DNA of 39,039 bases, from positions 1 to 39,039 of the IMG/VR virus record IMGVR_UViG_3300048762_000133; one strand, written 5' to 3'. The DNA comes from a virus (lineage: Duplodnaviria > Caudoviricetes). The position numbers and the translations under genes were made by a program. Shown piece by piece: positions 13,176 to 39,039 of this stretch. The notes under the pieces were generated by a model. The model saw only the letters and a list, made by a program, of their open reading frames with translations. It was not told the origin of the DNA and made no database searches. How positions within the stretch are numbered: the stretch's first letter is position 1; the number at the start of each line of letters is the position of its first letter.

Positions 13176-14540
13176 TTACTCCGTTGACCAATTTCGAAGT
13201 TCCAATTGATATTCTTTGAGCAGGCCGCCCTTGATGACTGTTGTTATGGAATGGATCCAGTAGCTTTGATTGATGCCGAGTATCGCATTTTTGAACGGGA
13301 TGTATTGCCCGACGGCAAATCTCGTGGTATTTCCAGATGGGAAGTTGCCGTCATCAACCCTGAGAGTCGGTTTCTGGAGGCTGTAACTAAACTGCGTCTC
13401 AAGACTATTCAGGTTCGCTTTCATGGCCTGCGCTGAGTTCGCATCCGAGGCCACGATACGGGTGGCGAACCATCGGCCGTATTTGTCGTAGCTCCCCTGG
13501 ACCTTGGAAGGCTGGCCGCCCTGGTAGAGGAAGCGGTAAATAATCTTGACCGAGTTGGTTAAATTCGGCGGGGCCGTGATGAAGGTTAGAGTCTGATTTA
13601 TGGCGTCCCACATGCAGTTGAAATTAGCCGTCGTATCTATACCGGTGAGTCCGACGGTCTGTAATGACCATTGAGGCGTCACATCCGAACCCGTGTTGAC
13701 GTAAACGATGATTCTGTCATACCCGGCTGGTGCGGCGGGCGAATTGTTGCCGCCGATAACAGATGTAGAGACAACCGTTTTGACACCATCATTCGGGATA
13801 GTGGCGGACATATTATACGAATATACCGCCGTTCCGTAAACCAGAAATGAGTTTACTATGCGGGTGGCATCACGCGACCACTTCAAACCCTGGTAGCCAA
13901 GGGCTGTCAAGCCGCCCAACGTCTCGCCTGGGGTGCTTGAGAGTGCGAAGGGTGCGGGGATCGATTCTTTCAGATAGTAATGGAGGTTCTTGTTGAAATC
14001 CACATAGTAGGAATATCCAACATACCCGGCCAGTAGTTCCACAGCTTCCCTGGCGTATGTATAAATGAAAGACAACGGGGCGAGTGCAGAGGTTCCCCCC
14101 TGGACATAGCTGCCGACGGTTATCTCCGAGCTTCCGTTTGTTCCGTTCGGCCCGACTACCCGGTTGGCGAAAAGGTCTGTCAAGGTATCCTTGTCGGACA
14201 ACCCCGTCAATCCGGGTGCGGGGTAGCTCATATAGAGCAGCGTCCTGTCGAGTAAAACTGTGTAGGACTGGCCTTGAATATCCCAATACCTGTTGATGCC
14301 GTCCGTGTACCCTGTTATATTGGCGGAAAGCCCCCCGAATATCCTCTCTCCTGTGTCTGTGCGTGTCACAATCAGGTCAACGCCTTCAAGAGGCACGGCA
14401 AGGGCGCAATTTTTGTCAACGAGCGTTCCCTGCATCGTGCTTACGGTTTTACCTAACACGGACTGGATTTGGAAGTTTGTCTCGGTTAGGGCGGCCGTGA
14501 AATCTACGCCGCCGATAGTCAAAGAAACGGGAGCGCTCAT
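13176..14540 (-). CDS. Tail tip / baseplate hub protein
   Basis: Directly after the tape measure gene; start at MSAPVSLTIGG; beta-rich, with YYVDFNKNLHY hub-like motif. Confidence 0.65.
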   Translation of the reverse strand: MSAPVSLTIGGVDFTAALTETNFQIQSVLGKTVSTMQGTLVDKNCALAVPLEGVDLIVTRTDTGERIFGGLSANITGYTDGINRYWDIQGQSYTVLLDRTLLYMSYPAPGLTGLSDKDTLTDLFANRVVGPNGTNGSSEITVGSYVQGGTSALAPLSFIYTYAREAVELLAGYVGYSYYVDFNKNLHYYLKESIPAPFALSSTPGETLGGLTALGYQGLKWSRDATRIVNSFLVYGTAVYSYNMSATIPNDGVKTVVSTSVIGGNNSPAAPAGYDRIIVYVNTGSDVTPQWSLQTVGLTGIDTTANFNCMWDAINQTLTFITAPPNLTNSVKIIYRFLYQGGQPSKVQGSYDKYGRWFATRIVASDANSAQAMKANLNSLETQFSYSLQKPTLRVDDGNFPSGNTTRFAVGQYIPFKNAILGINQSYWIHSITTVIKGGLLKEYQLELRNWSTE

Positions 14541-14541
14541 T

Positions 14542-15906
14542 TTAGAAAGCCCCGCGCAACCGGGCCGCGCTGTCGAGTTGACCGAGGAACCATGTGGCAA
14601 GAGGTGTGCCGTCCGAAAGGTAGAGGTTGATCGTCTGGCCGCCGGCGCCGCCGCCGGAAAGGGGCGTCACGGTAGCCCCCTGCTGCATGTCTATCAACTC
14701 CGGGCCGTTCTCGCCCACAATCGCACTACCGCCGGTCGTGGCCGTGCCGCCATTGGCCAACAAGGGAATGTCGGAGATGTTGATACCAAAGTGGTCTCCG
14801 CCGAATATAGGCACCCAGGAGGGGATATTGACCTGGATTTTGTCCATCAGATCGATAGCCCCGTTAATGACGTCGATAACGATATTGACAGCCCCGCGCC
14901 AGATTTTAGACCAGTCTGTGCCGAGGCTATTCCAGAGGCTCGACCAATCGACGTTCCCTAAATAGCTTGCCATCCTGTCCCAATCGCCCTTGATATAAGA
15001 CCATGACGCCTGCCATGTCCGGCTCCACGCCGCACCGATGTCTCCCCACATGGCATCCCAATTTACACCTTGCAGGAAATCGATTAAGGCTCCTACCTGT
15101 AATTCTGCCTGAGCGACCATAACCGGGAAAACCTCTACTACTTTTAGCACGGCCTCTCCGAGCGCGCCAAAACCTGTCTTTAAGTCTTCCATGCCACGGG
15201 AGGAGAGGTTGCTGTAAGATGAGTTGAGTCCAGATATGGGGGTCGCCTGCGCCTCAAGGTCGGAGGTCATTAATGTGACCGCGGCGTCTCCGGCGATTAT
15301 CCCGCCCGTTGTAGTGCGTAGCTGTGTATTTTGCCCTAGATAAGCAGAGGTTAAATCATCGACAACGGTTTGAAGTGGAATACCTGTGTCATGGGATATT
15401 TGGAGGGCCTTTGCCAATAACTCCAGGTCAGTCGTGGTGTCGGGTATTTTATTTTCAAGGCCGGTCAAAGCGGATGTAACGCTCGCCGTGGTCACTCCGT
15501 ACTTCTGCGCGATGGATACGACCTGATTTAAGGTGTCGTAAAAGTTTTGAATGGGGCCGCCGGAGACCTCATTAGTCGTGGCGCCCAGAATAGCCACGTC
15601 ACCGTAAAACTTTTCAAGATCCTGCGCGCTGTGCATCATCTCAATAGCCATTGCGCCGAGGCCGCCCGCACCCAGCAATGCGCCAATCCCGAACTGTGCC
15701 AGCATCGGGTTTAATTGTTCCAACCCCGGTATCATCTTATTCAGTGCCAGGTTCGTGGAGGTCTGCGCCTTACCCTGCGCGGTGGTGGCCTTGGTAGATG
15801 CGTCAGTTTTTGAAGACAATTTGTCCAGGTCGGAGTCAATCTGTTTCATCTGCTCCTGTCCGGAGACGATGTACTGGACTATTAAACTTACTTTTTCTTC
15901 GGACAT
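14542..15906 (-). CDS. Tape measure protein (short, 454 aa)
   Basis: Helical, W-periodic repeats, C-terminal IPLLANGG...IVGENGPELI; follows the chaperone. Confidence 0.88.
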   Translation of the reverse strand: MSEEKVSLIVQYIVSGQEQMKQIDSDLDKLSSKTDASTKATTAQGKAQTSTNLALNKMIPGLEQLNPMLAQFGIGALLGAGGLGAMAIEMMHSAQDLEKFYGDVAILGATTNEVSGGPIQNFYDTLNQVVSIAQKYGVTTASVTSALTGLENKIPDTTTDLELLAKALQISHDTGIPLQTVVDDLTSAYLGQNTQLRTTTGGIIAGDAAVTLMTSDLEAQATPISGLNSSYSNLSSRGMEDLKTGFGALGEAVLKVVEVFPVMVAQAELQVGALIDFLQGVNWDAMWGDIGAAWSRTWQASWSYIKGDWDRMASYLGNVDWSSLWNSLGTDWSKIWRGAVNIVIDVINGAIDLMDKIQVNIPSWVPIFGGDHFGINISDIPLLANGGTATTGGSAIVGENGPELIDMQQGATVTPLSGGGAGGQTINLYLSDGTPLATWFLGQLDSAARLRGAF

Positions 15907-24225: not shown

Positions 24226-25989
24226 TTAAGCCGCCTCGACGGTAGCTTTCGCCCTTTCCATTGCGGTCTTTAGCACGTCCTCATAGGAGCCGATAAGCTG
24301 GTCAAGAGAGCCCCCCACTGCGGGTGTGCGGTTCCTTCTACCTAAACCAGTCCTAACGCCGTCAAAAACGGCTTTTACCGCCTCAGAAGTGGACGCGGCG
24401 GACAGTTTCGCGGATATGGCCTGTTTCATTTCGGCGGGGATAATTTTTGTTTCAAATTCCCTCAAGGATTTTTTACCCAACCGGTTTAAGGTGAATTTCT
24501 CCCATGCATCCAGTTCAGCCTTTAGGGATAATTCAGGATAGTAATCCGATTCCCGCTCATCATCCGGCGGCGCGATGGATAAGGCGGGTAAACCCTGCGG
24601 CTGGCCTATTTGGGCGCCCTGCTGTCCCTGAACCGCTCCGGGCTGGAACTTGCCGGACAGGACATCGGCCAGCAGGATAGGCCCTGAACCTGTGAAAACA
24701 AGGGGAATCGCCCCCATGCCGTTATCAAGGGGAGGTAACCCCTGTTCCCCCCGGATGTCGTCGATAGTCTTGATAGCCTTTGAGAGCATCTGGTCATTCA
24801 TATTAGAACGGGCGGTGTCATAATTCGCGCCCGGCGTCCAGATAAACTCAAGCATGGGGAGGCCAAGGTCGTCACAAAGAATCTGGTCAAACCACGACTT
24901 GAAGAAACGCAGTAAAGGGATAAGGGAATACTCCTGGCGCGCTTCCTCTTGAGTCTCAGCGGTTGCGCGGTTCATCATGCGGACATAAGGCGCGGGCGAG
25001 ACGCCGAAACACGCGCACTCGACGCGGGCCAGCCATTCGTCGAACAGGCCATCAAACTGGAGCTGTTGGAGCATTTGGACTCCGCCCACGCCGGGAAGGA
25101 CATGCATCTTTGACCGGGCCGCTAGGTCGCCCGATAGCAGGGTGTCAATCATATCCTGCCAGGCTTTTAGCTGGTCAGGAGTCATATTAGCCATCATGGT
25201 CTCGGTAAGTTGAACGATGCCCTGGGGGACATTCCCGGAGCGGAACCATTCTATGAAGCTCACGTTGCGGCGGATAACGATGTTGAGAATCTGGGCGATT
25301 GACTCTACGTGCGAGAATCCATACACGCCGTCGGAATGAGTATTATATGGCCTGTAGTAAAGCTCGTACTGGCCATTGTTATCGCCAGTCACAGGTTTGA
25401 TAAAAGATGTGCGCGGCATACCTTTGATGATTTGCTCATAAGCCATTTGAGGCGGCGAAGGGACACGGCCGGTGTCATCTATGAGCACGAGTATCTTCGT
25501 GCCGTCTATGATTTGCAGGGAGTGGAAACGCCCGATACGGTCCCGCTCTTTGTAGAGAGCCGGGGCGTCAACGACAAAATGATCTTCGGCCAGCATGCCG
25601 ATCCATTGGTCAAAGGTGTGCTCAAAGTCGGGTTTCTCGAAGAACTTCTGCCCCCACTTTTGCTCGGCGGAATAATCCTCGTCGGCAAACTCTTTACGGG
25701 TTGCTACCTGCCAATCCAGCCCCTTCAGCTCGTCTTTGCGCTGCTCGATGATGGTCCTTAGGATGCCGTCAATCTGCGCCAGACCTCTCATCTGGTCGTA
25801 TGTAACCGCCCGCGCCTCGGTGGCGCGCGGCATGATTTGCATGTTACGGGAGATGGCGTAATCATTGGCGCGCGGACTCTCGCCGGGGGCCTGGGGGTTG
25901 ATAGGTGCGCCAGGGCCAAACCCGACATTAGACGGGAGCCATAGAGCGGGCGTTTCTGGTTTGACTGTATATAATCTAAATTCAGCCAT
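24226..25989 (-). CDS. Portal protein
   Basis: Position after TerL; YGFSHVE, F..GNVPQG, ACFGVSP...NRATAE motifs. Confidence 0.9.
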   Translation of the reverse strand: MAEFRLYTVKPETPALWLPSNVGFGPGAPINPQAPGESPRANDYAISRNMQIMPRATEARAVTYDQMRGLAQIDGILRTIIEQRKDELKGLDWQVATRKEFADEDYSAEQKWGQKFFEKPDFEHTFDQWIGMLAEDHFVVDAPALYKERDRIGRFHSLQIIDGTKILVLIDDTGRVPSPPQMAYEQIIKGMPRTSFIKPVTGDNNGQYELYYRPYNTHSDGVYGFSHVESIAQILNIVIRRNVSFIEWFRSGNVPQGIVQLTETMMANMTPDQLKAWQDMIDTLLSGDLAARSKMHVLPGVGGVQMLQQLQFDGLFDEWLARVECACFGVSPAPYVRMMNRATAETQEEARQEYSLIPLLRFFKSWFDQILCDDLGLPMLEFIWTPGANYDTARSNMNDQMLSKAIKTIDDIRGEQGLPPLDNGMGAIPLVFTGSGPILLADVLSGKFQPGAVQGQQGAQIGQPQGLPALSIAPPDDERESDYYPELSLKAELDAWEKFTLNRLGKKSLREFETKIIPAEMKQAISAKLSAASTSEAVKAVFDGVRTGLGRRNRTPAVGGSLDQLIGSYEDVLKTAMERAKATVEAA

Positions 25990-27337
25990 GTTGCTCCTGT
26001 TTATCCGTCATAAGTTTGGCCGCTCCCTGCCAGAGGGCGAGTAAATCAGCGGTCCCTGTAAGTATCCCCAGCCCCGCGCTCATCGTGTCAACCTGGTCAT
26101 CGTGTGAGCCGTTGGGAAAGGCTTCAACCTCGTCTAGGAAGTCGCCAATCCACACGCCCCGTATCAGTAATATGTTCTTAGCCTCGGCCTGGGATGATGC
26201 CGGAGCGGCCCTCGTAACTTTGTCGGTAGCGGGCCTGTCTGGGGTGATCGAGTAACCAGCGAGCTGGCGGATGTAGTAATCGATTAATGTTTTACCGCCC
26301 GCGCCCGGCTCCTGTTCGATGTAGATTTTGGTTGCGGTAGTATCGAGTATGGCTGTTTGTTTTACAAGAGCTTCGACGCCCTGGGGAGATGCCCTGAGAT
26401 GTCGCATGTCGGCTATATAGAACTTCCCTTGTCCGTCCCTGCCTATCTTGCATCCTGCGGTATAGTCCGGATCTTTGCCCTTTGTGGCCTCCGTGGCGGC
26501 CATGTCCCAATACCTTATCCACCTGATGCCAGCGGGCGCAGCCTCTACGATGTCAAACCACTCGCGCTTGAATAAGTTTCCCGTGTCTCTGGCGGACCAG
26601 TCGCCCAGAAGAAGCCGCTGTCGGGTTATCGGGTCAAGCTGATTGAGGCTCTGAGTGTAGGACCCCCTGTCCAGGTAGGGGTTATCGTCTAGCCGTGCCG
26701 GTATAAATATACGGCCCTTTTCAAGACCCTCCGTAATAAACCGCTGCTTTACCCAGTCATGACCTACACCGCCGGGGTTGGACGCGGCCCGGATACGCAA
26801 GGGGATTTCAGATGTTTCGAGGCGGCGTAACCGGGAGTAGAGGAATTTAAAGGCTTTTTCGGAAAACTCGGTCAATTCATCGAAGGCTACAAACTGGAAT
26901 TCCGCGCCCTGGTAGCGGTACATGTCCGTGGCGTTATCGAGGTAGCCGAATGAGATCGTCGCGCTGCTCGGAAAGTGCCAAGTTTTTTCCTGCTCTTTCC
27001 AAACAACACCCTGGCTTTGGAATTTAGACAACCACTCACGGGAGCGGTCAAGTAGTGCGCCGGGGAGTGTGAGTTCTGAATAGTTTTTACGGAAGATGAT
27101 GGCCGCATATCCCGGGATGTCTACGTACTGGAGAGCCGCCATTAAAAGAGCGTCGGACTTGCCACCGCCAGCCGCCCCGCCGTAAAACACCTCTTGGTTA
27201 TCCAGTAGCAGGAAGGCTAACTGTTTGTCCGTCGGCTTGTGAGGTATGTACTTGTTCAGACGGGGGTTGACCGTCTTCAGTGGCTCCCAGCCGGACGGCC
27301 CCCGCTTTGACAAGGATAGCGAGGGCGTTTGAGACAT
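25982..27337 (-). CDS. terL: Terminase large subunit
   Basis: Walker A YGGAAGGGKS, Walker B VAFDE, ASNPGGVGHDWVK, nuclease YWDMA...HDDQVD. Confidence 0.96.
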   Translation of the reverse strand: MSQTPSLSLSKRGPSGWEPLKTVNPRLNKYIPHKPTDKQLAFLLLDNQEVFYGGAAGGGKSDALLMAALQYVDIPGYAAIIFRKNYSELTLPGALLDRSREWLSKFQSQGVVWKEQEKTWHFPSSATISFGYLDNATDMYRYQGAEFQFVAFDELTEFSEKAFKFLYSRLRRLETSEIPLRIRAASNPGGVGHDWVKQRFITEGLEKGRIFIPARLDDNPYLDRGSYTQSLNQLDPITRQRLLLGDWSARDTGNLFKREWFDIVEAAPAGIRWIRYWDMAATEATKGKDPDYTAGCKIGRDGQGKFYIADMRHLRASPQGVEALVKQTAILDTTATKIYIEQEPGAGGKTLIDYYIRQLAGYSITPDRPATDKVTRAAPASSQAEAKNILLIRGVWIGDFLDEVEAFPNGSHDDQVDTMSAGLGILTGTADLLALWQGAAKLMTDKQEQHG

Positions 27338-27659
27338 CGATTTCTCCTATGTTTATCTGTGTGATCGAGGTCATATCCACTAAGTCCTTGACCTTGCCCT
27401 CAACCCGGTCTAATCCCTCTTTAATCGCCGTCAGATCGCCCCGCCCCATCTTGGCAAACATGGCGAGTGCGACGATCATGGCCCCGGTCGGTTTGCCCTT
27501 GACCCACTTGGCCTTGACCTTCTCAGGATCGCCGTTAAGCAGTTCGGCCAGAAGCGACGTGACACAGTGAATCTTGGCAGGCCGCCCGTTCGGGTTGGCA
27601 TGATTGCCTGGTTGGAATGGCTTGCCTATAACTCGCGGTTTTACCGCAACTTCAGACAT
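27198..27659 (-). CDS. Terminase small subunit (DUF5681-like)
   Basis: PFQPGNHANPNGRP, LDRVEGK; directly upstream of TerL, overlapping it by 140 nt. Confidence 0.75.
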   Translation of the reverse strand: MSEVAVKPRVIGKPFQPGNHANPNGRPAKIHCVTSLLAELLNGDPEKVKAKWVKGKPTGAMIVALAMFAKMGRGDLTAIKEGLDRVEGKVKDLVDMTSITQINIGEIDVSNALAILVKAGAVRLGATEDGQPPSEQVHTSQADGQTVSLPATG

Positions 27660-28438
27660 TAGATTTTAACTGCCTTTTTACATGTGAAATCTTCCCAGCG
27701 TTTGATGATGACGTCGCAGTAATGCGGGTCGATTTCCATGCCGTAGCACTTGCGGTCTAACTTCTCACAGGCTATGAGGGTGGAACCTGAACCGAGAAAG
27801 AGGTCGAGGACGCTCCCTTCGATAGGTGTGCTATTTACCAATTGCGCTTCAATGAGTGCGACGGGTTTCATTGTGGGGTGGGATTCGCTTCGTTTTGGGC
27901 GGGGAATTTCAAAGATTGTGGTCTGGCTATGATTTCCAACCCACAGAGTTCCTTCGTGCTTACCCCTGCCTGGTCTGCCATCTCCCGGAAAATATCCATA
28001 ATAAATCGGCTCATGCCGATAGTGGTAATCGGCGTGTCCAAGAACCATGCTGTCCTTGACCCACACGAGCGTTTGATGCAAGCGCCATCCAAGTTTTCTA
28101 ATCACGTCCCCATAAGTTAGTGATAGCGCACCCGGCGGGTGCGCTATATAAAAATGTCCTGAATCAACACATGCGAATTGGGCATTTGTGAAAGCATCGA
28201 ACAATAGACAATAAAGCCCACCAGCATCGTCGTTTTCAATAGTCAGCGCCTCTTTTGTTTTACCGATATACTTGACGCCATAAGGTGGGTCTGTCCACAT
28301 GCAGATAGCCTTCTCGCCCCCCATCAACCTCGCCACGTCCTCTTTCTTGGTAGCATCCCCCACTAAAAGATAATGAGCACCTTTTACGTCAGCTCGGGTA
28401 TATTCTACCTCGTGCCCACACTCACATTTAGTCTTCAA
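27659..28438 (-). CDS. DNA N4-C/N6-A methyltransferase (beta class); C-terminal half of a split ParB-MTase
   Basis: TDPPY, HPTMKP, VLDLFLGSGST; TTG start after GGGAG. Confidence 0.9.
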   Translation of the reverse strand: MKTKCECGHEVEYTRADVKGAHYLLVGDATKKEDVARLMGGEKAICMWTDPPYGVKYIGKTKEALTIENDDAGGLYCLLFDAFTNAQFACVDSGHFYIAHPPGALSLTYGDVIRKLGWRLHQTLVWVKDSMVLGHADYHYRHEPIYYGYFPGDGRPGRGKHEGTLWVGNHSQTTIFEIPRPKRSESHPTMKPVALIEAQLVNSTPIEGSVLDLFLGSGSTLIACEKLDRKCYGMEIDPHYCDVIIKRWEDFTCKKAVKI

Positions 28439-28441
28439 AAA

Positions 28442-28470
28442 TTGACTCCCGTAATATGCGGTGATATAAT
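28442..28470 (+). promoter_or_regulatory. Promoter for the antisense HNH gene (probably leaderless)
   Basis: TTGACT-17-TATAAT with TGn; ATG 6 nt after the -10. Confidence 0.7.
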
Positions 28471-28476
28471 AAAGTT

Positions 28477-28998
28477 ATGGAATGTAGAGATTGTAAAAAA
28501 GAGTTTACCCCAAATCCCCGCTGGCATCGCGCTTGGGGGCTTTGCCCTGAATGCCGAGTTCTTAATTCGCATCGGATAAAAGAAAAATACAAGAAAACTG
28601 CGAAAGGGAAAGCATGCTTGGAACGATGGGTCCATAGCGAAAAACGAGCAGAAAATGAAAAGGGCTATCGGCAAACACCCCGCCGAAAACAATTAGCAGT
28701 TGCCGCAACTACTAGATTCAGATTAAATCATCCTGAATTGGAACCGGAGGTTGCGCGAGTAAACCGAATTTACGAATCAAGGACACAAGGTAAACTAAGA
28801 GGATGGTGGAAAGAACACTCTAAAAATGGTTGTCTAAAATGTGGCACCTTCGAAAAGTTGTGCATCGACCATATTATCCCGCGTTCTCTAGGCGGTTCTG
28901 ACGATATTAGCAATCTCCAGGTTCTTTGCATACGCTGTAATGGTGAAAAAGGAACACAGACTATAGATTATGCTGCTTCCCACACTTCGGACAAATAA
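28477..28998 (+). CDS. HNH endonuclease, antisense insertion
   Basis: CLKC...IDHIIPRSLGGSDDISNLQVLCIRCN..KG; N-terminal CxxC..CxxC. Confidence 0.92.
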   Translation: MECRDCKKEFTPNPRWHRAWGLCPECRVLNSHRIKEKYKKTAKGKACLERWVHSEKRAENEKGYRQTPRRKQLAVAATTRFRLNHPELEPEVARVNRIYESRTQGKLRGWWKEHSKNGCLKCGTFEKLCIDHIIPRSLGGSDDISNLQVLCIRCNGEKGTQTIDYAASHTSDK

Positions 28999-29509
28999 TA
29001 TATCCTCCGAGTTGCCACAGGTCGCCCGTCTTACAGGTAGGTTCTACCTGTTCGGGGATAGCGTCATCATCGGTCAAGCCTTCGCCTGGGACATGGAACT
29101 GCGTCATCAACTCTTCGATTTCCTTATCATCGAAGCCGGTTATCTCTATGTCGAACGCCCCAGTGTTGATTTCTTCCAGCAGGTCTTTCAAGCGGGGCAA
29201 GTCCCACTCGCCGGATATTTTATTCAAGGCCAGGTTAAGGGCTTTCTCTTTGGCGTCATCCAGCCGGACTATTGAAACCTCGACCTCGGCGCGCCCCATC
29301 TCTTTTAAGACCTTGAGGCGCTGGTGGCCGCCTACAAGGTTCCCCGTTTTCTCATTCCAGACAAGCGGCTCGATGCAGTCAAACTCGGTTAGCGATTTCT
29401 TGAGCTTTTTATACTCAGGATCGGATGGTTGCAAATCCTTGCGGGGATTGTAATCAACCGGGTTTATCTTTGAGATGGGGATGGTTTTAATTTCCATAAT
29501 CTTTTTCAT
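28961..29509 (-). CDS. ParB/Srx-like domain protein; N-terminal half of a split ParB-MTase
   Basis: YNPRKDL, LVGGHQRL, LNKISGEWD, then DDAIPE...KTGDLWQLG. Confidence 0.88.
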   Translation of the reverse strand: MKKIMEIKTIPISKINPVDYNPRKDLQPSDPEYKKLKKSLTEFDCIEPLVWNEKTGNLVGGHQRLKVLKEMGRAEVEVSIVRLDDAKEKALNLALNKISGEWDLPRLKDLLEEINTGAFDIEITGFDDKEIEELMTQFHVPGEGLTDDDAIPEQVEPTCKTGDLWQLGGYIICPKCGKQHNL

Positions 29510-29544
29510 TTACGCACGAAAAGCGAAAGTTGCCACCGTAGCGA

Positions 29545-29868
29545 TCAAACTATTCCAGGCGGCTGTTCATAATAAACGTCCAGACCGAGCGCGAGCGCCA
29601 GCTCATATTCACCCTTGGAACCTTCGCTCGATTCCCAGCCAGCCATCATGAATATGCAATCGCAGCGTCTTAAAATCTCAAGATCGCCCTCAAGGAATAT
29701 CTCATCTGGTACGGCTCCATCGAAGTTTGCAGTGTTCGCGTGAGGACAGATAACCGCAAATCCCGAGCGCCATAATTCTTTCGCCGCGTGCATGGCCGCG
29801 TAGATATTGGCGTCGATGCCCTGCTTGGTTGGGGCGCGGTAGGGGCCGGACACAAAGATGATTTTCAT
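29545..29868 (-). CDS. DUF4406/DUF1937-like (nucleoside deoxyribosyltransferase fold) protein
   Basis: IFVSGPY, CPH, LRRCD.IFMM.GWESSEGS..E. Confidence 0.75.
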   Translation of the reverse strand: MKIIFVSGPYRAPTKQGIDANIYAAMHAAKELWRSGFAVICPHANTANFDGAVPDEIFLEGDLEILRRCDCIFMMAGWESSEGSKGEYELALALGLDVYYEQPPGIV

Positions 29869-30404
29869 TACCCCGTCACACTCACTTTGTTTTCGTTTAA
29901 TCTGGCGAAAGCGAGTCCATCTGCAAAACCTTTTTTATAACCATGTCGGTAACTTAGTTCGTGAGTACCCCGAGTAGTTAGTTGCAGATTTTCTAATTTA
30001 TTGTTGTAACGGTTGCCATCGAGATGATGCACTATTTCGCTCGAAAGTAACGGTCTTCCGAGGTGCCGCATCATAACAAGTCGATGTTCAAGAATGTATC
30101 CGTCTTGACTACGCTGTGGGTAGAAATCATCACCGGGAAACATGCGAATAGCATTATATCCCTCAGTGTCTTTGCGACCGCCTCTCCAGCGTGGATTGTC
30201 TGAACCCTTTTGAGGATTTCCAAACCATCTATTACTGCAAAATTTCATCATGCATGAACGGCACATGAGACTAGGATTTTTAATCAAATAATACTTATCA
30301 ATCCAACGCTCTTTCCCACAATGAGGGCATGCCTGCCAGACATAACTACTATGCCCAGTTCTGCCGATTTCTCTTGATGTTGACACTTCTCCGATACTAG
30401 GCAT
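29868..30404 (-). CDS. HNH homing endonuclease
   Basis: NPRWRGG, EHRLVM..HLGRPL...EIVHHLDGNRYNN..ENLQL. Confidence 0.9.
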   Translation of the reverse strand: MPSIGEVSTSREIGRTGHSSYVWQACPHCGKERWIDKYYLIKNPSLMCRSCMMKFCSNRWFGNPQKGSDNPRWRGGRKDTEGYNAIRMFPGDDFYPQRSQDGYILEHRLVMMRHLGRPLLSSEIVHHLDGNRYNNKLENLQLTTRGTHELSYRHGYKKGFADGLAFARLNENKVSVTG

Positions 30405-32850: not shown

Positions 32851-33981
32851 TCAGGCTACGCACGGAGCAACCTCCCACGTTAGCACCTGAGGGGTCTGCC
32901 CGACCCCACGACTGAGTATGTTCCTAGCGGCGTTCTCATCCCTGTCTAACACTAATCCGCAGTTAGGGCAGCAATGGATACGCTCAGCTAGTGTCTTTGG
33001 TACTTTAATACCACATCCTGAACAGAGTTGAGAGGTATTTTGGGGCGCTACTTTGACCAGTATCCTACCGGCACTCTCAGCCTTATAGGATAGCAGCCCG
33101 AAGAATTGCCCCCAAGCTCCATCCAGAATGTGCCTTGCCAGATGGTGATTCCGCACCATCCCCTTGATATTCAAACCCTCTACGTAAATCGTGCCGTAGC
33201 TTTGAATGTAGTAATTGGCTACCTTGTGCAGAAAGTCTGCGCGTTGACTGGCTACCTTTTCGTGTGCCTTAGCTACTAATACCCGAGCTCGTTTCCTTCC
33301 TTGTGAGCCTTTAATCCTCCGGCTCAACCTGCGCTGCCTTAGCCGCAGTTCTGCCATGCTTTTGTTGGAATAGCGTGGATTATCTATCTTGTGTCCCTCA
33401 GAGTCTACTGCCATCGAGGTTATGCCTACATCTATGCCGATGGATTTGTCATTCTCAGGAAGTTTATTCTCCGGCACGCTGTCGCAAGAGAAGCAGACGT
33501 ACCACTTACCGGTAGCAGAGCGGCGCATGGTGACAATTTTAATCTCCCCCTCAATGGGGCGGGAAAGGTGAAGTTTGAAGATACCAACCTTGGCTATATG
33601 CAGATGATTCCCCTCAAGTTTCCAGCCCGTCTGCTTTAGGGTGAAGGAATCATACCAGCCCCTGCCCCTGAACCGAGGAAAGCCTGCTTTGCCCCCAGCC
33701 TTCACCCTGCGGAAAAATCCTTTGTAGGCTTTATCCAGTCGCTCTAGCACATTCTGGAGCACTTGGGAACCTACGTTCTGATATTCGGGGTGGACTATTT
33801 TGAAATCGGGCAGAGCGTTGGCTTGGTCATATCCAGATACCGTTTCGTGGTCTTCTTGCCAACATTCTATCCGATTAGCCAGTGCCACATTGTAGAGCCT
33901 ACGGCATAGCTCCAGCCATTGAGACACATGTTCCAGTGTCTCTTTGTTGGCATAGGCCCTATATCTATAGGTCAGTTTCAT
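32851..33981 (-). CDS. tnpB: TnpB RNA-guided endonuclease
   Basis: RuvC GIDVG / VEGL / DRDENAA, CSGC..CPNC Zn finger, GFPRF. Confidence 0.96.
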   Translation of the reverse strand: MKLTYRYRAYANKETLEHVSQWLELCRRLYNVALANRIECWQEDHETVSGYDQANALPDFKIVHPEYQNVGSQVLQNVLERLDKAYKGFFRRVKAGGKAGFPRFRGRGWYDSFTLKQTGWKLEGNHLHIAKVGIFKLHLSRPIEGEIKIVTMRRSATGKWYVCFSCDSVPENKLPENDKSIGIDVGITSMAVDSEGHKIDNPRYSNKSMAELRLRQRRLSRRIKGSQGRKRARVLVAKAHEKVASQRADFLHKVANYYIQSYGTIYVEGLNIKGMVRNHHLARHILDGAWGQFFGLLSYKAESAGRILVKVAPQNTSQLCSGCGIKVPKTLAERIHCCPNCGLVLDRDENAARNILSRGVGQTPQVLTWEVAPCVA

Positions 33982-34367
33982 TTTTTACTTTGGGCTTCGA
34001 TGTACTTCTTAATAGTTTCGCTGGATACGTTGCCTGCTGTAGACACGAAGTAGCTATTAGTCCAGAGCGAAGGGAGCCTTAGCAGTGTGGGAAACTCTTT
34101 CCTGAGCATGTTGGAGCTTCTTCCCTTAAACGCTTTGACCAATTTGTGAATCGCTATTTGTGGGTAGCACGAAACGAAAAGGTGTAAATGGTCTGGCATT
34201 ACCTCTAACGCTAATATCTTCACCTTCTGCTCTACGGCTACCTGCGCCAATATCTCGGCCAGCCTATCTTTAATACCGCCAGTCAACACCGAGCGCCGAC
34301 GCTTTGGGCACCACACTAAATGGAAGTTCAAGAGGTAGACTTGGTTTCTTATACGTTCGTATTCCAT
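33978..34367 (-). CDS. tnpA: Y1 (HUH) transposase
   Basis: HLVWCPKRR, PDHLHLF, LWTNSYFVST, YIEAQ; start at 34367, 6 nt after TTGACA..TATATT. Confidence 0.96.
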   Translation of the reverse strand: MEYERIRNQVYLLNFHLVWCPKRRRSVLTGGIKDRLAEILAQVAVEQKVKILALEVMPDHLHLFVSCYPQIAIHKLVKAFKGRSSNMLRKEFPTLLRLPSLWTNSYFVSTAGNVSSETIKKYIEAQSKK

Positions 34368-34456
34368 GTTTACAATATACCAACTATCTACATTGCTTGT
34401 CAACTGCCCCTGATTCATCCCCAGCATTAAAATGCGGGGTTTTCTCAGGACGTTTT

Positions 34457-36547: not shown

Positions 36548-36724
36548 TTAAATCCATCCTACCTCAACCTTATTGCTGGACGTGCGCTCTTTCGCGGCCG
36601 CTTTAATCGCTACCTCTCGTTGCAATATGGCGATCTGTTTCACCGCGCAGACATCCGAGGCCCACCAGGCGCAATCTGACTCGGCGCAATCAGACTGTGT
36701 TAAAGGGCAAACCTTTTTATTCAT
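36548..36724 (-). CDS. 58-aa Cys-rich protein (not in ORF track)
   Basis: MNKKVCPLTQSDCAESDCAWWASDVCAV..., overlaps the stop of the DnaB C-half. Confidence 0.55.
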   Translation of the reverse strand: MNKKVCPLTQSDCAESDCAWWASDVCAVKQIAILQREVAIKAAAKERTSSNKVEVGWI

Positions 36725-37064
36725 ATGCGTTCATCTCCTCTACCTCGTAATACATTCCTGTTGATTCTTTATAAATTACCGGCACGGCCCCCACTTTTCC
36801 ACCTTGCCTCTCTTTTGCGATGATGAGTTTCCCAATACTCGGTCTACCCTGAACCTTGACTATATTGCGATCATAATAGTCCGGCCTGTGGATAAAGACC
36901 ACGGCGTCAGCGTCACTCTCAATATGGCCGCTGTTATGGACAAGTATGCTGTTAGCTATAAAATTGTGGTTTTGTGGAACGACAAAATCATAGGTTTGCT
37001 GTAAACCTATATCCTCCACAGAAATGACTTCATCGTAGATTAAACTCGCCTGTTGTTCTATCAT
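36717..37064 (-). CDS. dnaB: Split intein C-fragment (44 aa) plus DnaB C-extein
   Basis: TYDFVVPQNHNFIANSILVHN|SGHIESDADAVVFIHR...IIAKERQG; GGGAGG upstream. Confidence 0.9.
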   Translation of the reverse strand: MIEQQASLIYDEVISVEDIGLQQTYDFVVPQNHNFIANSILVHNSGHIESDADAVVFIHRPDYYDRNIVKVQGRPSIGKLIIAKERQGGKVGAVPVIYKESTGMYYEVEEMNAYE

Positions 37065-37105: not shown

Positions 37106-38539
37106 CTATACCACATAAGATGCAGACACACAAGTTATTTTATCGCCTATTTTAATATCTTTAGCCTTAACCCATTTGCCATCCACGTAAACAGGGGTAT
37201 TCCTGCTTAATTCTATAGACCTTCCCCCTTTTGTTTTTATCTTCAGGCACCACTTACTTCCAGTATCAATAACTTTGGGGGTCTCTATTTTAGGTTCGCC
37301 TGAGGGAAGCGTAATTGACAATAATTCCGCATCCTCTTTTTTATAAATGTCATAAATAGGCCGCATGCCTCGGGTAGTCTGGATAAGCGTCCCACCTGTC
37401 ACACATTCGTAAAGGTCAGATAATTGTGGCTCATTTCCCTCGCGCTGTGTGACCGCACGGCTCAGTTGGTGCGCCGTGATAAGCGGTACGTCGAGGTCCA
37501 TCGCAATAGCCTTGAGTTGCCGTGAAATATACCCAAGCCGCTCATTTGCATTTTTGCCGTATTCATCGGCCATGATGCCCAGATAGTCCACGAATATCGC
37601 GGTCAATCCGTACCTGGCCTGCATTTCTACCGCCGCGCTCATTACGCGCGAAGTAGTTAATCTCGCCCCGCGCTTTGATTCCAGGTAATAAACATTACTT
37701 TCAGATAGCTTCCCCAGGGCTCCAAGCAAATCCGAATACATCTGCTCGGAGTATTTTCCCTGTCTTACCTCATGGATGTGGACACCTAGAGCAGAGGCGA
37801 TATCCCGATCTGTCACACTGGATATAGGCATTTCAGCCGAACAAAATAGTACATTCCCGTACTTGCCTTGATGGTTTGCCATCTGTTGGAGCAAGGTAGT
37901 TTTACCGATTCCGGGACGCCCGGCGAAGATTATCAGTTCGCCGTTATAAAATCCGCCTCCGAAGTTACGGTCCAGCCGCCCGAAGGAAGTTTTCACAGCA
38001 ACGTTATTTGTCGCATTGAATAGCGCGGTATATCTTGACTCCATCATCTCGGCCCGCATGTGAGGCGTCACAATGGGCGTGTAGGATGCCTTTTTACGAA
38101 TTGCGAGTAACATGGCGTCCGCCTCATCGAGTGGTTGCGCTACATCGGGCTTTACGGCCATTCCGATTTCTGCGATTGCCTCGCCAGCGGTGATAAGCTG
38201 GCGGAATATAGACAACCTCTTAACGATGTCGGCATAATATCTGACGTCTAATGCCGTAGGTGTGGCTGTTAAAAGATGATTCAGATAAGGCACGCCGCCG
38301 ATTTTATCAAATGCCCCCGCCATTTCGAGTTCTTGCCGGAGGGTGATAAGGTCAATTGACACACCGCGCTTGTAGAGAGCGCTTGCCGCCGCGAATATCA
38401 GTTTGTTGGTATCTGATAGAAAATCCGTCGGCGCGAGTATGCCAGCAATATCTTTATAAACCGGTCCGTCTACCAGGAGGGACCCGTTTACCGCTTCCTC
38501 CGCCTCAAGATCATAGGGTGCGAGTTTTACATCTGTCAT
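37106..38539 (-). CDS. dnaB: DnaB replicative helicase N-extein plus split intein N-fragment (99 aa)
   Basis: PYDLEAEEAV, AGRPGIGKT, VDYL, HQLSR, PQLSDLYE|CVTGGTLI (Cys1 at 37405). Confidence 0.95.
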   Translation of the reverse strand: MTDVKLAPYDLEAEEAVNGSLLVDGPVYKDIAGILAPTDFLSDTNKLIFAAASALYKRGVSIDLITLRQELEMAGAFDKIGGVPYLNHLLTATPTALDVRYYADIVKRLSIFRQLITAGEAIAEIGMAVKPDVAQPLDEADAMLLAIRKKASYTPIVTPHMRAEMMESRYTALFNATNNVAVKTSFGRLDRNFGGGFYNGELIIFAGRPGIGKTTLLQQMANHQGKYGNVLFCSAEMPISSVTDRDIASALGVHIHEVRQGKYSEQMYSDLLGALGKLSESNVYYLESKRGARLTTSRVMSAAVEMQARYGLTAIFVDYLGIMADEYGKNANERLGYISRQLKAIAMDLDVPLITAHQLSRAVTQREGNEPQLSDLYECVTGGTLIQTTRGMRPIYDIYKKEDAELLSITLPSGEPKIETPKVIDTGSKWCLKIKTKGGRSIELSRNTPVYVDGKWVKAKDIKIGDKITCVSASYVV

Positions 38540-39039
38540 TTTAACTCCGGCCAGATGGATTTATAAGGTTGTTTGGCAGGATGTTCCTTTTCGTCTTTTC
38601 TTGCCCATGCCAGGATAGTTGCGTAATGGCTGCTTCTTTTTTTTCCCGTACTCGCCAGCCAAAGTGACAACCCCTCTATCTTGTCGTCAAGGGTTCCGTT
38701 AAACCTTGTTTTTAACTTTTCGTATTCTTCAGATGATAGGATAACGTTCTTTAATTCACCATACCCTATATTTTGTATAGATATATTTACCCTTTGTGTG
38801 TCGAGTGTGTGGCTAACTTTTGTTAGCCGTTTGGCTAACTGGAGTTGGCAGGTGGCTAACTTTTCCTTATTGCCCGAGTTATCCATTTGGCTAACTTTAG
38901 GCACAGGGTTTGAAACAGGTTTGTTATCCATTTGGCTAACTTTAGGCACAGGGTTTGAAACAGGTTTGTTATCCATTTGGCTAACTTTAGGCACAGGGTT
39001 TGAAACAGGTTTGTTATCCATTTGGCTAACTTTTGTTAG
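38536..39039 (-). CDS. Lambda O-like initiator, C-terminal part
   Basis: In frame with 385..1 across the junction; C-terminal NVILSSEEYEKL...SHYATILAWARKD. Confidence 0.85.
   Translation of the reverse strand, partial: LTKVSQMDNKPVSNPVPKVSQMDNKPVSNPVPKVSQMDNKPVSNPVPKVSQMDNSGNKEKLATCQLQLAKRLTKVSHTLDTQRVNISIQNIGYGELKNVILSSEEYEKLKTRFNGTLDDKIEGLSLWLASTGKKRSSHYATILAWARKDEKEHPAKQPYKSIWPELK
38808..39039. repeat. Iteron-like array, probable replication origin
   Basis: About 3.5 copies of a 45-bp unit plus extra GGCTAAC/GTTAGCC motifs inside the initiator gene. Confidence 0.8.

Follow-up and report, generated by a model that had tools for sequence, protein, structure and literature searches.

The split ParB-methyltransferase locus

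The window, a whole 39-kb virus record, carries a gene for a ParB-like protein and a gene for a beta-class amino-methyltransferase on the minus strand, with an HNH endonuclease gene on the opposite strand between them and the terminase genes following (Table 1). This arrangement, described previously in the initial annotation, was confirmed by the ORF list and the Pfam matches. The ParB-like protein has a ParB domain with a GxxR motif (GHQR at residue 61), although its match to PF02195 (E 1e-5) lies just under the cut-off. Its C-terminus reads GDLWQLG-GYIICPKCGKQHNL*; the GD and the second G of GDLWQLG are invariant in alignment A3, and the same tail is found in the proteins P0394 and P0398. 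The methylase ORF starts with TTG and reads MKTKCECGHEVEYTRADVKGA and then HYLLVGD. It shows the PPY-before-FxGxG order of the beta class, with DPPY at residue 50 and FLGSGST at residue 214. The family phrog_498 is covered by the two proteins in two abutting matches (profile positions 30-199 and 199-430). As had been claimed, the downstream half possesses its own ribosome-binding site, TTG start and intact catalytic motifs, and the uninterrupted form reads straight through: the closest methylase relatives are fused proteins with GDLWxLG-x-HRLLCGD and no cysteine insert. A contig of sequencing run X1, a possible source sample, spans positions 27993-29700 with zero differences, showing that the split is not a mis-join.

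Table 1 Features of the split locus and further features of the window
Feature	Position	Strand	Remarks
Large terminase	25982-27337		after small terminase; Terminase_6N/6C
Small terminase (likely; role inferred from position)	27198..27659	-	DUF5681; overlaps methylase stop
Beta-class amino-methyltransferase half, DPPY type	27659..28438	-	259 aa
New N-terminal head MKTKCECGHEVEYTRADVKGA	28376..28438	-	21 residues, CECGH; second Cys pair C5/C7
630-bp inserted cassette	28376..29005		tail, HNH gene, promoter/RBS gap and head; replaces one codon of fused allele
Sigma-70-like promoter TTGACT-17-TATAAT, extended -10	28442..28470	+	11/12 consensus (consensus match alone)
Ribosome-binding site GGGAG of methylase	28446..28450	-	7 nt ahead of TTG start
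HNH endonuclease	28477..28998	+	173 aa, N-terminal Cys4 ribbon, intact-looking DHIIP...CN motifs
ParB-like half, adaptor subunit	28961..29509	-	182 aa, GHQR motif at 61-64
New C-terminal tail GYIICPKCGKQHNL*	28961..29005	-	14 residues, CPKC; first Cys pair C173/C176
GDLWQLG donor strand	29006..29026	-	predicted to complete methylase beta-sheet; lowest-error contacts in complex
Second HNH gene (HNH_3)	29868-30404	-	upstream of locus
Two overlapping ORFs (454 and 474 aa)	13176-15906	-	where tape-measure gene expected
IS200/IS605 element	32851-34427	-	TnpB and TnpA
dnaB, two ORFs	37106-38539 and 36717-37064	-	split by apparent natural split intein
Replication-initiator-like ORF	38536-39021	-	opens with three copies of 15-residue repeat; near contig end

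The HNH ORF matches Pfam HNH_5 (E 1.9e-12), and its gene overlaps the 3' end of the ParB gene by 38 nt. The putative promoter points into the HNH gene and ends 6 nt before its ATG; judged from these positions, the HNH message is likely to be leaderless. Elsewhere in the window, tape-measure PHROGs match only the first of the two overlapping ORFs at the place of the tape-measure gene, and the 15-residue repeats near the contig end are likely origin iterons.

Can the two halves still yield a single chain? RNA splicing, protein splicing or ribosomal bypassing would be compatible with an insert of 630 nt whose flanking halves are in the same frame. Against this, ten in-frame stops lie between the halves, which are two ORFs and not one polypeptide. 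No ribozyme core of a group I or II intron was found with Rfam, the folding of the insert is ordinary (z 0.60), and no intein model matched either half, while the same scan detected intein pieces in the dnaB of this phage. In most relatives the two ORFs overlap out of frame by 4-8 nt, which leaves no space for an intron; the same head also occurs on second methylases located about 800 nt downstream. A joint skipping the insert was found in none of four sequencing runs, of which X1 alone covers the junctions. The RNA run X2 gave one 202-nt contig inside the HNH gene; it has no strand information and may be DNA, and we did not count it as expression. Splicing and inteins are therefore unsupported, in agreement with the initial annotation, which had noted no intein or obvious intron signals, and we consider the formation of a single chain extremely improbable. 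The dnaB gene matches TIGR01445 on its first ORF and TIGR01443 on its second, with a gap of 41 nt that contains no nuclease; an apparent split intein and the cysteine joint thus occur together in this phage.

Cysteine ends in split and fused relatives

The initial annotation had named co-occurrence of the Cys pairs with the split among homologues as a check of its proposal, and this co-occurrence turned out to be strict. Among 80 viral relatives, the locus L152 has the same split with no HNH gene and with two methylases bearing the Cys head (tagged methylases). We then scanned DNA with a pattern for GDLWxLG-x4-CPxCG. All 36 viral loci found in this way stop 19-27 residues past the motif start. 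Among 12 matching loci in genomes, 11 are real and likewise stop after the motif (L202 is a chance match); the genome records are titled Planctomycetota, Bryobacteraceae, Terriglobia, Armatimonadetes and Lentisphaerales. Every one of the 61 methylase ORFs behind the 36 viral tails has a Cys pair before the His, while the 95 proteins that were recognised as fused in a set of 119 all lack it, which shows that the Cys pairs are more than a chance feature. The reciprocal pattern for the head matched 43 loci, 34 of them tagged and nine by chance; a ParB half with CxxC lies upstream in 33 of the 34, and the remaining one is cut by the contig end. Many of these loci are contigs already present in the tail scan.

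The best 120 of 4063 tail-profile matches are all 83-232 aa long, with GD.W.LG-x4-CPxC and without a PPY motif; here the motif is selected by the profile, but the short length is not. In the best 150 of 3998 head-profile matches, the Cys pair was detected by script in 134 and by eye in most of the others, and none of these 150 combined ParB, both knuckles and methylase in one chain. All split loci are on uncultured contigs. Among cultured phages, the head of the window had no match, and the matches listed for another head (25 of 39) miss the first Cys.

The preserved ends also bear on whether the two halves work apart, one of them being a relic, and the methylase acts alone. Remnants do occur at some loci (L366). 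In the window, both ORFs are intact with their GHQR, DPPY and FxGxG motifs. The ParB half keeps the methylase-fold strand in all of the best 120 of 4063 tail-profile matches, and we regard independent function as improbable.

The ligand sets vary among the 134 heads (63 CxCxxC, 51 CxC and 20 CxxC), meaning that a four-Cys geometry is not fixed; two heads (P0382 and P0386) have C-x-N-G-H, where the His may replace a Cys ligand. Two motif scans and a pair of profile searches revealed no fused ancestor containing the whole zinc ribbon. Two single odd records were rejected as such an ancestor: P0324, in which a ParB fragment runs straight onto a head with no donor strand or CPxC, and P0121, which looks duplicated. 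The finger repeats of DUF4379 (PF14311) were also rejected as the source of the knuckles. With what we take to be the DUF4379 motif, there was no match among 37 heads or in any of the five genomes searched, and DUF4379 was absent from the 25 of 27 families listed for the 37 heads at E values up to 10, where weak generic ribbons alone appeared.

Many stand-alone phage ParBs (P0411, P0415, P0417-P0419, P0421, P0422, P0424, P0425, P0427 and L284:3001-3513) end in a lone CPxCGxxF/W and have no donor strand; these knuckles may be where the tail came from, or they may act as a hook for other partners. In another subfamily, L237 shows a variant joint, in which the ParB ends in GQIWVIRPKMATCPHCNHEQ... 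and the two methylases behind it have heads that are very short.

Predicted complex and a putative shared zinc site

The methylase half was modelled with a beta-class amino-methyltransferase fold (pLDDT 84.8), and its best Foldseek matches were N4C and N6A enzymes with about 20-23% identity. Modelled alone, the head and the tail had low confidence. We predicted the complex from the methylase, zinc and the last 45 residues of ParB. The complex score was 0.91 versus 0.01 for the best control, in a test that split-gene halves tend to pass and with a tool that neither scores nor places zinc; among pairs of known status, 116 of the 157 solved ones and 2 of the 215 mismatched ones came up to the score mark used. 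The runs shared at least 71% of the contacts, with a partner pLDDT of at least 68. The tightest contacts were all strand-to-strand, with ParB residues 161-167 lying between methylase residues 21-26 and 256-258, and C5, C7, C173 and C176 were all located in the predicted interface. No sequence among the solved structures covers this junction. The two halves are thus predicted to bind to each other, mainly by means of a ParB strand that would complete the methylase sheet.

CxxC and CxC knuckles are a zinc-binding chemistry, and because of this we infer that the two Cys pairs share one zinc ion. The initial annotation had proposed a zinc ribbon closed by both pairs that rejoins the halves. Part of this proposal is supported, as the Cys pairs track the split, binding of the halves is predicted and all four cysteines lie in the predicted interface, and the clasp reading is likely right, with the zinc as its conditional part. 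The predicted interface is also dominated by the donated GDLWQLG strand, a contribution that the initial annotation had not considered.

Strand complementation could also join the halves alone, with the Cys pairs serving as zinc hooks between two ParBs or two methylases, in higher-order assembly, or in binding iron. The complex score is indeed carried by the modelled strand contacts, many stand-alone ParBs end in CPxCGxxF/W without a donor strand (e.g., P0411, P0415 and P0417-P0419), and in the split nrdA of phage Aeh1 the tails drive formation of the tetramer and not of the heterodimer, according to the available text (PMC3045599). But in split loci the tail is invariably accompanied by the head, and both knuckles fall into the predicted cross-chain interface, so we consider this division of roles unlikely.

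The Rad50 hook and the CD4-Lck clasp likewise have two Cys per chain sharing one zinc, as far as described in the available texts (PMC5093744, PMC12198760). Unlike in these systems, the site proposed here would join the halves of a former single enzyme and serve several partners. As a separate observation, the ParB-methylase of L254-L256 (P0392) has its catalytic core deleted in frame and retains GDLW-HRLL together with the last helix and strand, which are the elements of the predicted joint.

Mobility, cargo and history of the cassette

The DNA likeness to fused alleles, whose ParB parts are 72-87% identical, ends at position 29006 and returns at the His codon, which shows that a 630-bp insert has replaced one codon. 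The ParB body of the window is 73% identical to the N-terminal part of the fused protein P0002, and the methylase body is 81% identical to it. The first 44 methylase residues, in turn, are 77% identical to the second methylases of L194 and L183, even though the full-length methylases of these loci are just 46% identical to that of the window. In a tree of 208 bodies, for which the fused set was chosen by likeness to the window, the window methylase nests with the fused P0002-P0004 (support 99), and the second enzyme of L165 is also found among fused enzymes. A single clade of all tagged enzymes was rejected (p-AU 9.6e-5) in a test on 29 rows picked after the first tree had been seen. The halves nest among fused alleles, yet the head resembles those of distant split loci, from which we conclude that recombination moves the joint: a tail-cargo-head unit enters fused alleles, and the locus is of mosaic origin. 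Among the nearest ParB proteins (39 inspected of 120 listed), six are split with a Cys tail, two of them with a tail identical to that of the window, 16 are of the fused type and 17 lack the motif, showing that both states segregate in one lineage. The split state was found in none of the 80 nearest viral loci.

The nuclease is flanked by C- and N-terminal extensions encoded by the element, at a site that is uninterrupted in close relatives. Because it is seated in a conserved coding site, the HNH protein is likely a homing nuclease. A search for its close relatives in viral contigs gave one weak locus. In L258, an HNH gene directly behind a fused ParB-methylase (L258:4224-4931) has RWDYTGKKAVKL at its end. 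This sequence copies the C-terminal motif of the methylase, which suggests a second nuclease target site at the 3' end of the methylase gene.

Two further scans brought the census to 57 distinct tails. By script, 45 of these loci have two tagged methylases, one has three, nine have one and two are truncated; on inspection L410 also has two, so that 47 of the 57 carry two or three methylases behind one ParB. A nuclease-like ORF occupies the gap in only three (L184, L396 and L386), each with a single methylase as in the window. The gap of L184 contains a sense HNH gene resembling that of the window in the HNH core only, the gap of L396 contains a sense HNH gene 30% identical to it over 198 columns, and that of L386 an antisense degenerate ORF whose N-terminal part matches an HNH PHROG. 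In L225, the gap measures 390 nt and contains a small ORF that matches no known family, and at L249/L250/L389 three tagged methylases lie behind one ParB. In the 29 two-methylase loci of the tail scan, the first enzyme is of the SPPY type in 23 and the second of the DPPY or DPPW type in all 29. Heads within one locus are mostly 53-65% identical (range 29-88%), compared with 24-35% for the bodies, which may be because both heads would have to fit one socket. The idea that the split is a way to avoid duplicated fused genes was rejected for lack of support, as just 2 of the 129 loci with a length of 5.5 kb or more have two fused genes.

The HNH gene is thus minority cargo, and the view of the initial annotation that the clasp is dedicated to tolerating it is not supported. 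More likely, the nuclease gene is carried along as a passenger by a joint that can be reused. The analogy drawn there with the mobE-split nrdA of Aeh1 holds for the tails, the nuclease and the lack of splicing, i.e., a split gene rescued by element-derived tails; it fails for the chemistry of the tails. The Aeh1 tails are oppositely charged, and they are needed for the tetramer but not for the heterodimer, according to the available text (PMC3045599). The tail and head of the cysteine joint have mean net charges of +0.9 and +0.5 and cysteine as the shared feature; since they are not oppositely charged, a charge-pair mechanism was rejected.

Another precedent for the cassette is MobA of T4-like phages, an HNH cassette that inserts at a fixed site and adds conserved extensions at the C- and N-terminal sides, both overlapping the ORF of the nuclease; its tails outlast the nuclease, and the nucleases get replaced (bioRxiv 10.1101/2022.08.31.505936). 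The window shares with it the tail-HNH-head layout at a conserved site. MobA differs in having a bypass cassette and a topoisomerase target, whereas the window has no bypass cassette, a methylase target and a downstream ORF open from its start; in addition, the tails here are short Cys knuckles, and the slot usually holds a second enzyme. This precedent suggests a history that is compatible with the clasp, in which an endonuclease element made the split and brought both tails, as in MobA and as the initial annotation had assumed, and the nuclease was later lost or swapped while extra methylases filled the slot. The MobA-like layout of the window, the survival of MobA tails beyond the loss of their nuclease and the single methylase of all three nuclease-bearing relatives fit it. 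However, no nuclease lies in the gap of 54 of the 57 distinct split loci (two of them truncated), and the nucleases differ in orientation and build (antisense in the window, sense in L396 and L184, antisense and degenerate in L386). At L165, a cassette that carries a methylase as cargo sits within the fused alleles, and an origin of the knuckles from DUF4379 finger repeats, which also counted in favour of a nuclease-free view or against this history, found no support. We hold this history to be possible but doubtful.

The explanation that we regard as probable is that the ParB adaptor and the methyltransferase are two proteins reassembling without splicing, through a joint used family-wide and carried by a mobile cassette. 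In this explanation, the sheet of the methylase is completed by the last strand of the adaptor, and a zinc site beside it, made of four cysteines, would be closed jointly by the two Cys pairs. Usually, one ParB precedes two tagged methylases, most often the SPPY type first and then the DPPY type; both presumably plug into the same socket and would be interchangeable. Their probable target is the DNA of the phage, with methylation taking place next to the packaging genes. The space between tail and head is unconstrained and can accommodate either another methylase or, in the window, a nuclease, and the HNH protein here probably drives the spread of the cassette by cutting uninterrupted alleles.

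The split locus belongs to none of the related systems, i.e., MobA, fractured genes and the fused family. Fused phage ParB-N6/N4 methyltransferases (phrog_498; PF02195+PF01555) have the same two domains and the same place before the terminase genes, but they are single chains, while the system of the window consists of two polypeptides with Cys-tagged ends and usually has one ParB per two or three methylases. The available texts on ParB-terminase loci (PMC4738411, bioRxiv 10.1101/2025.10.10.680097) mention neither a split form nor zinc; methylation of phage DNA around packaging is a prediction made there for such loci (PMC4738411). In fractured genes with split inteins, a free-standing endonuclease likewise separates the two parts of an enzyme gene (PMC2677866); the halves in the window have no intein, and no covalent ligation is expected. 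A separate phage ParB also serves a DNA-modifying enzyme in the ParB-activated T-dioxygenase system, although the enzyme is different; in the available text, no stable ParB complex was seen, which counts against the explanation given above, and the word zinc is absent from the main text (PMC13229309). In the literature searched, we found no description of a Cys-tagged split or of a layout with one ParB and several methylases.

Tail-rescued split genes are known from few cases in T4-like phages, with no defined tail chemistry. The present work adds a joint of 14+21 residues with a specific proposed mechanism that combines strand complementation with a shared zinc, and this joint recurs at no fewer than 57 distinct loci; the window contributes a mapped cassette within a lineage that has fused alleles, and the census contributes the alternation of nucleases and methylases in one slot. 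It also seems that the joint has come to serve as a one-to-many adaptor. A wider reading, for which we see about even chances, is that a splice-free, metal-closed connector makes one ParB a hub, with an SPPY and a DPPY enzyme per ParB dimer, and that the mobile tail-cargo-head cassette opens a gene slot in an otherwise fused gene, as a non-covalent counterpart of split inteins exploited by homing nucleases. If true, this would give a handle on the role of phage ParB domains for DNA-modifying enzymes, it would describe how a selfish insertion site became a diversity slot for methylation specificity, and it would provide a small natural heterodimer tag.
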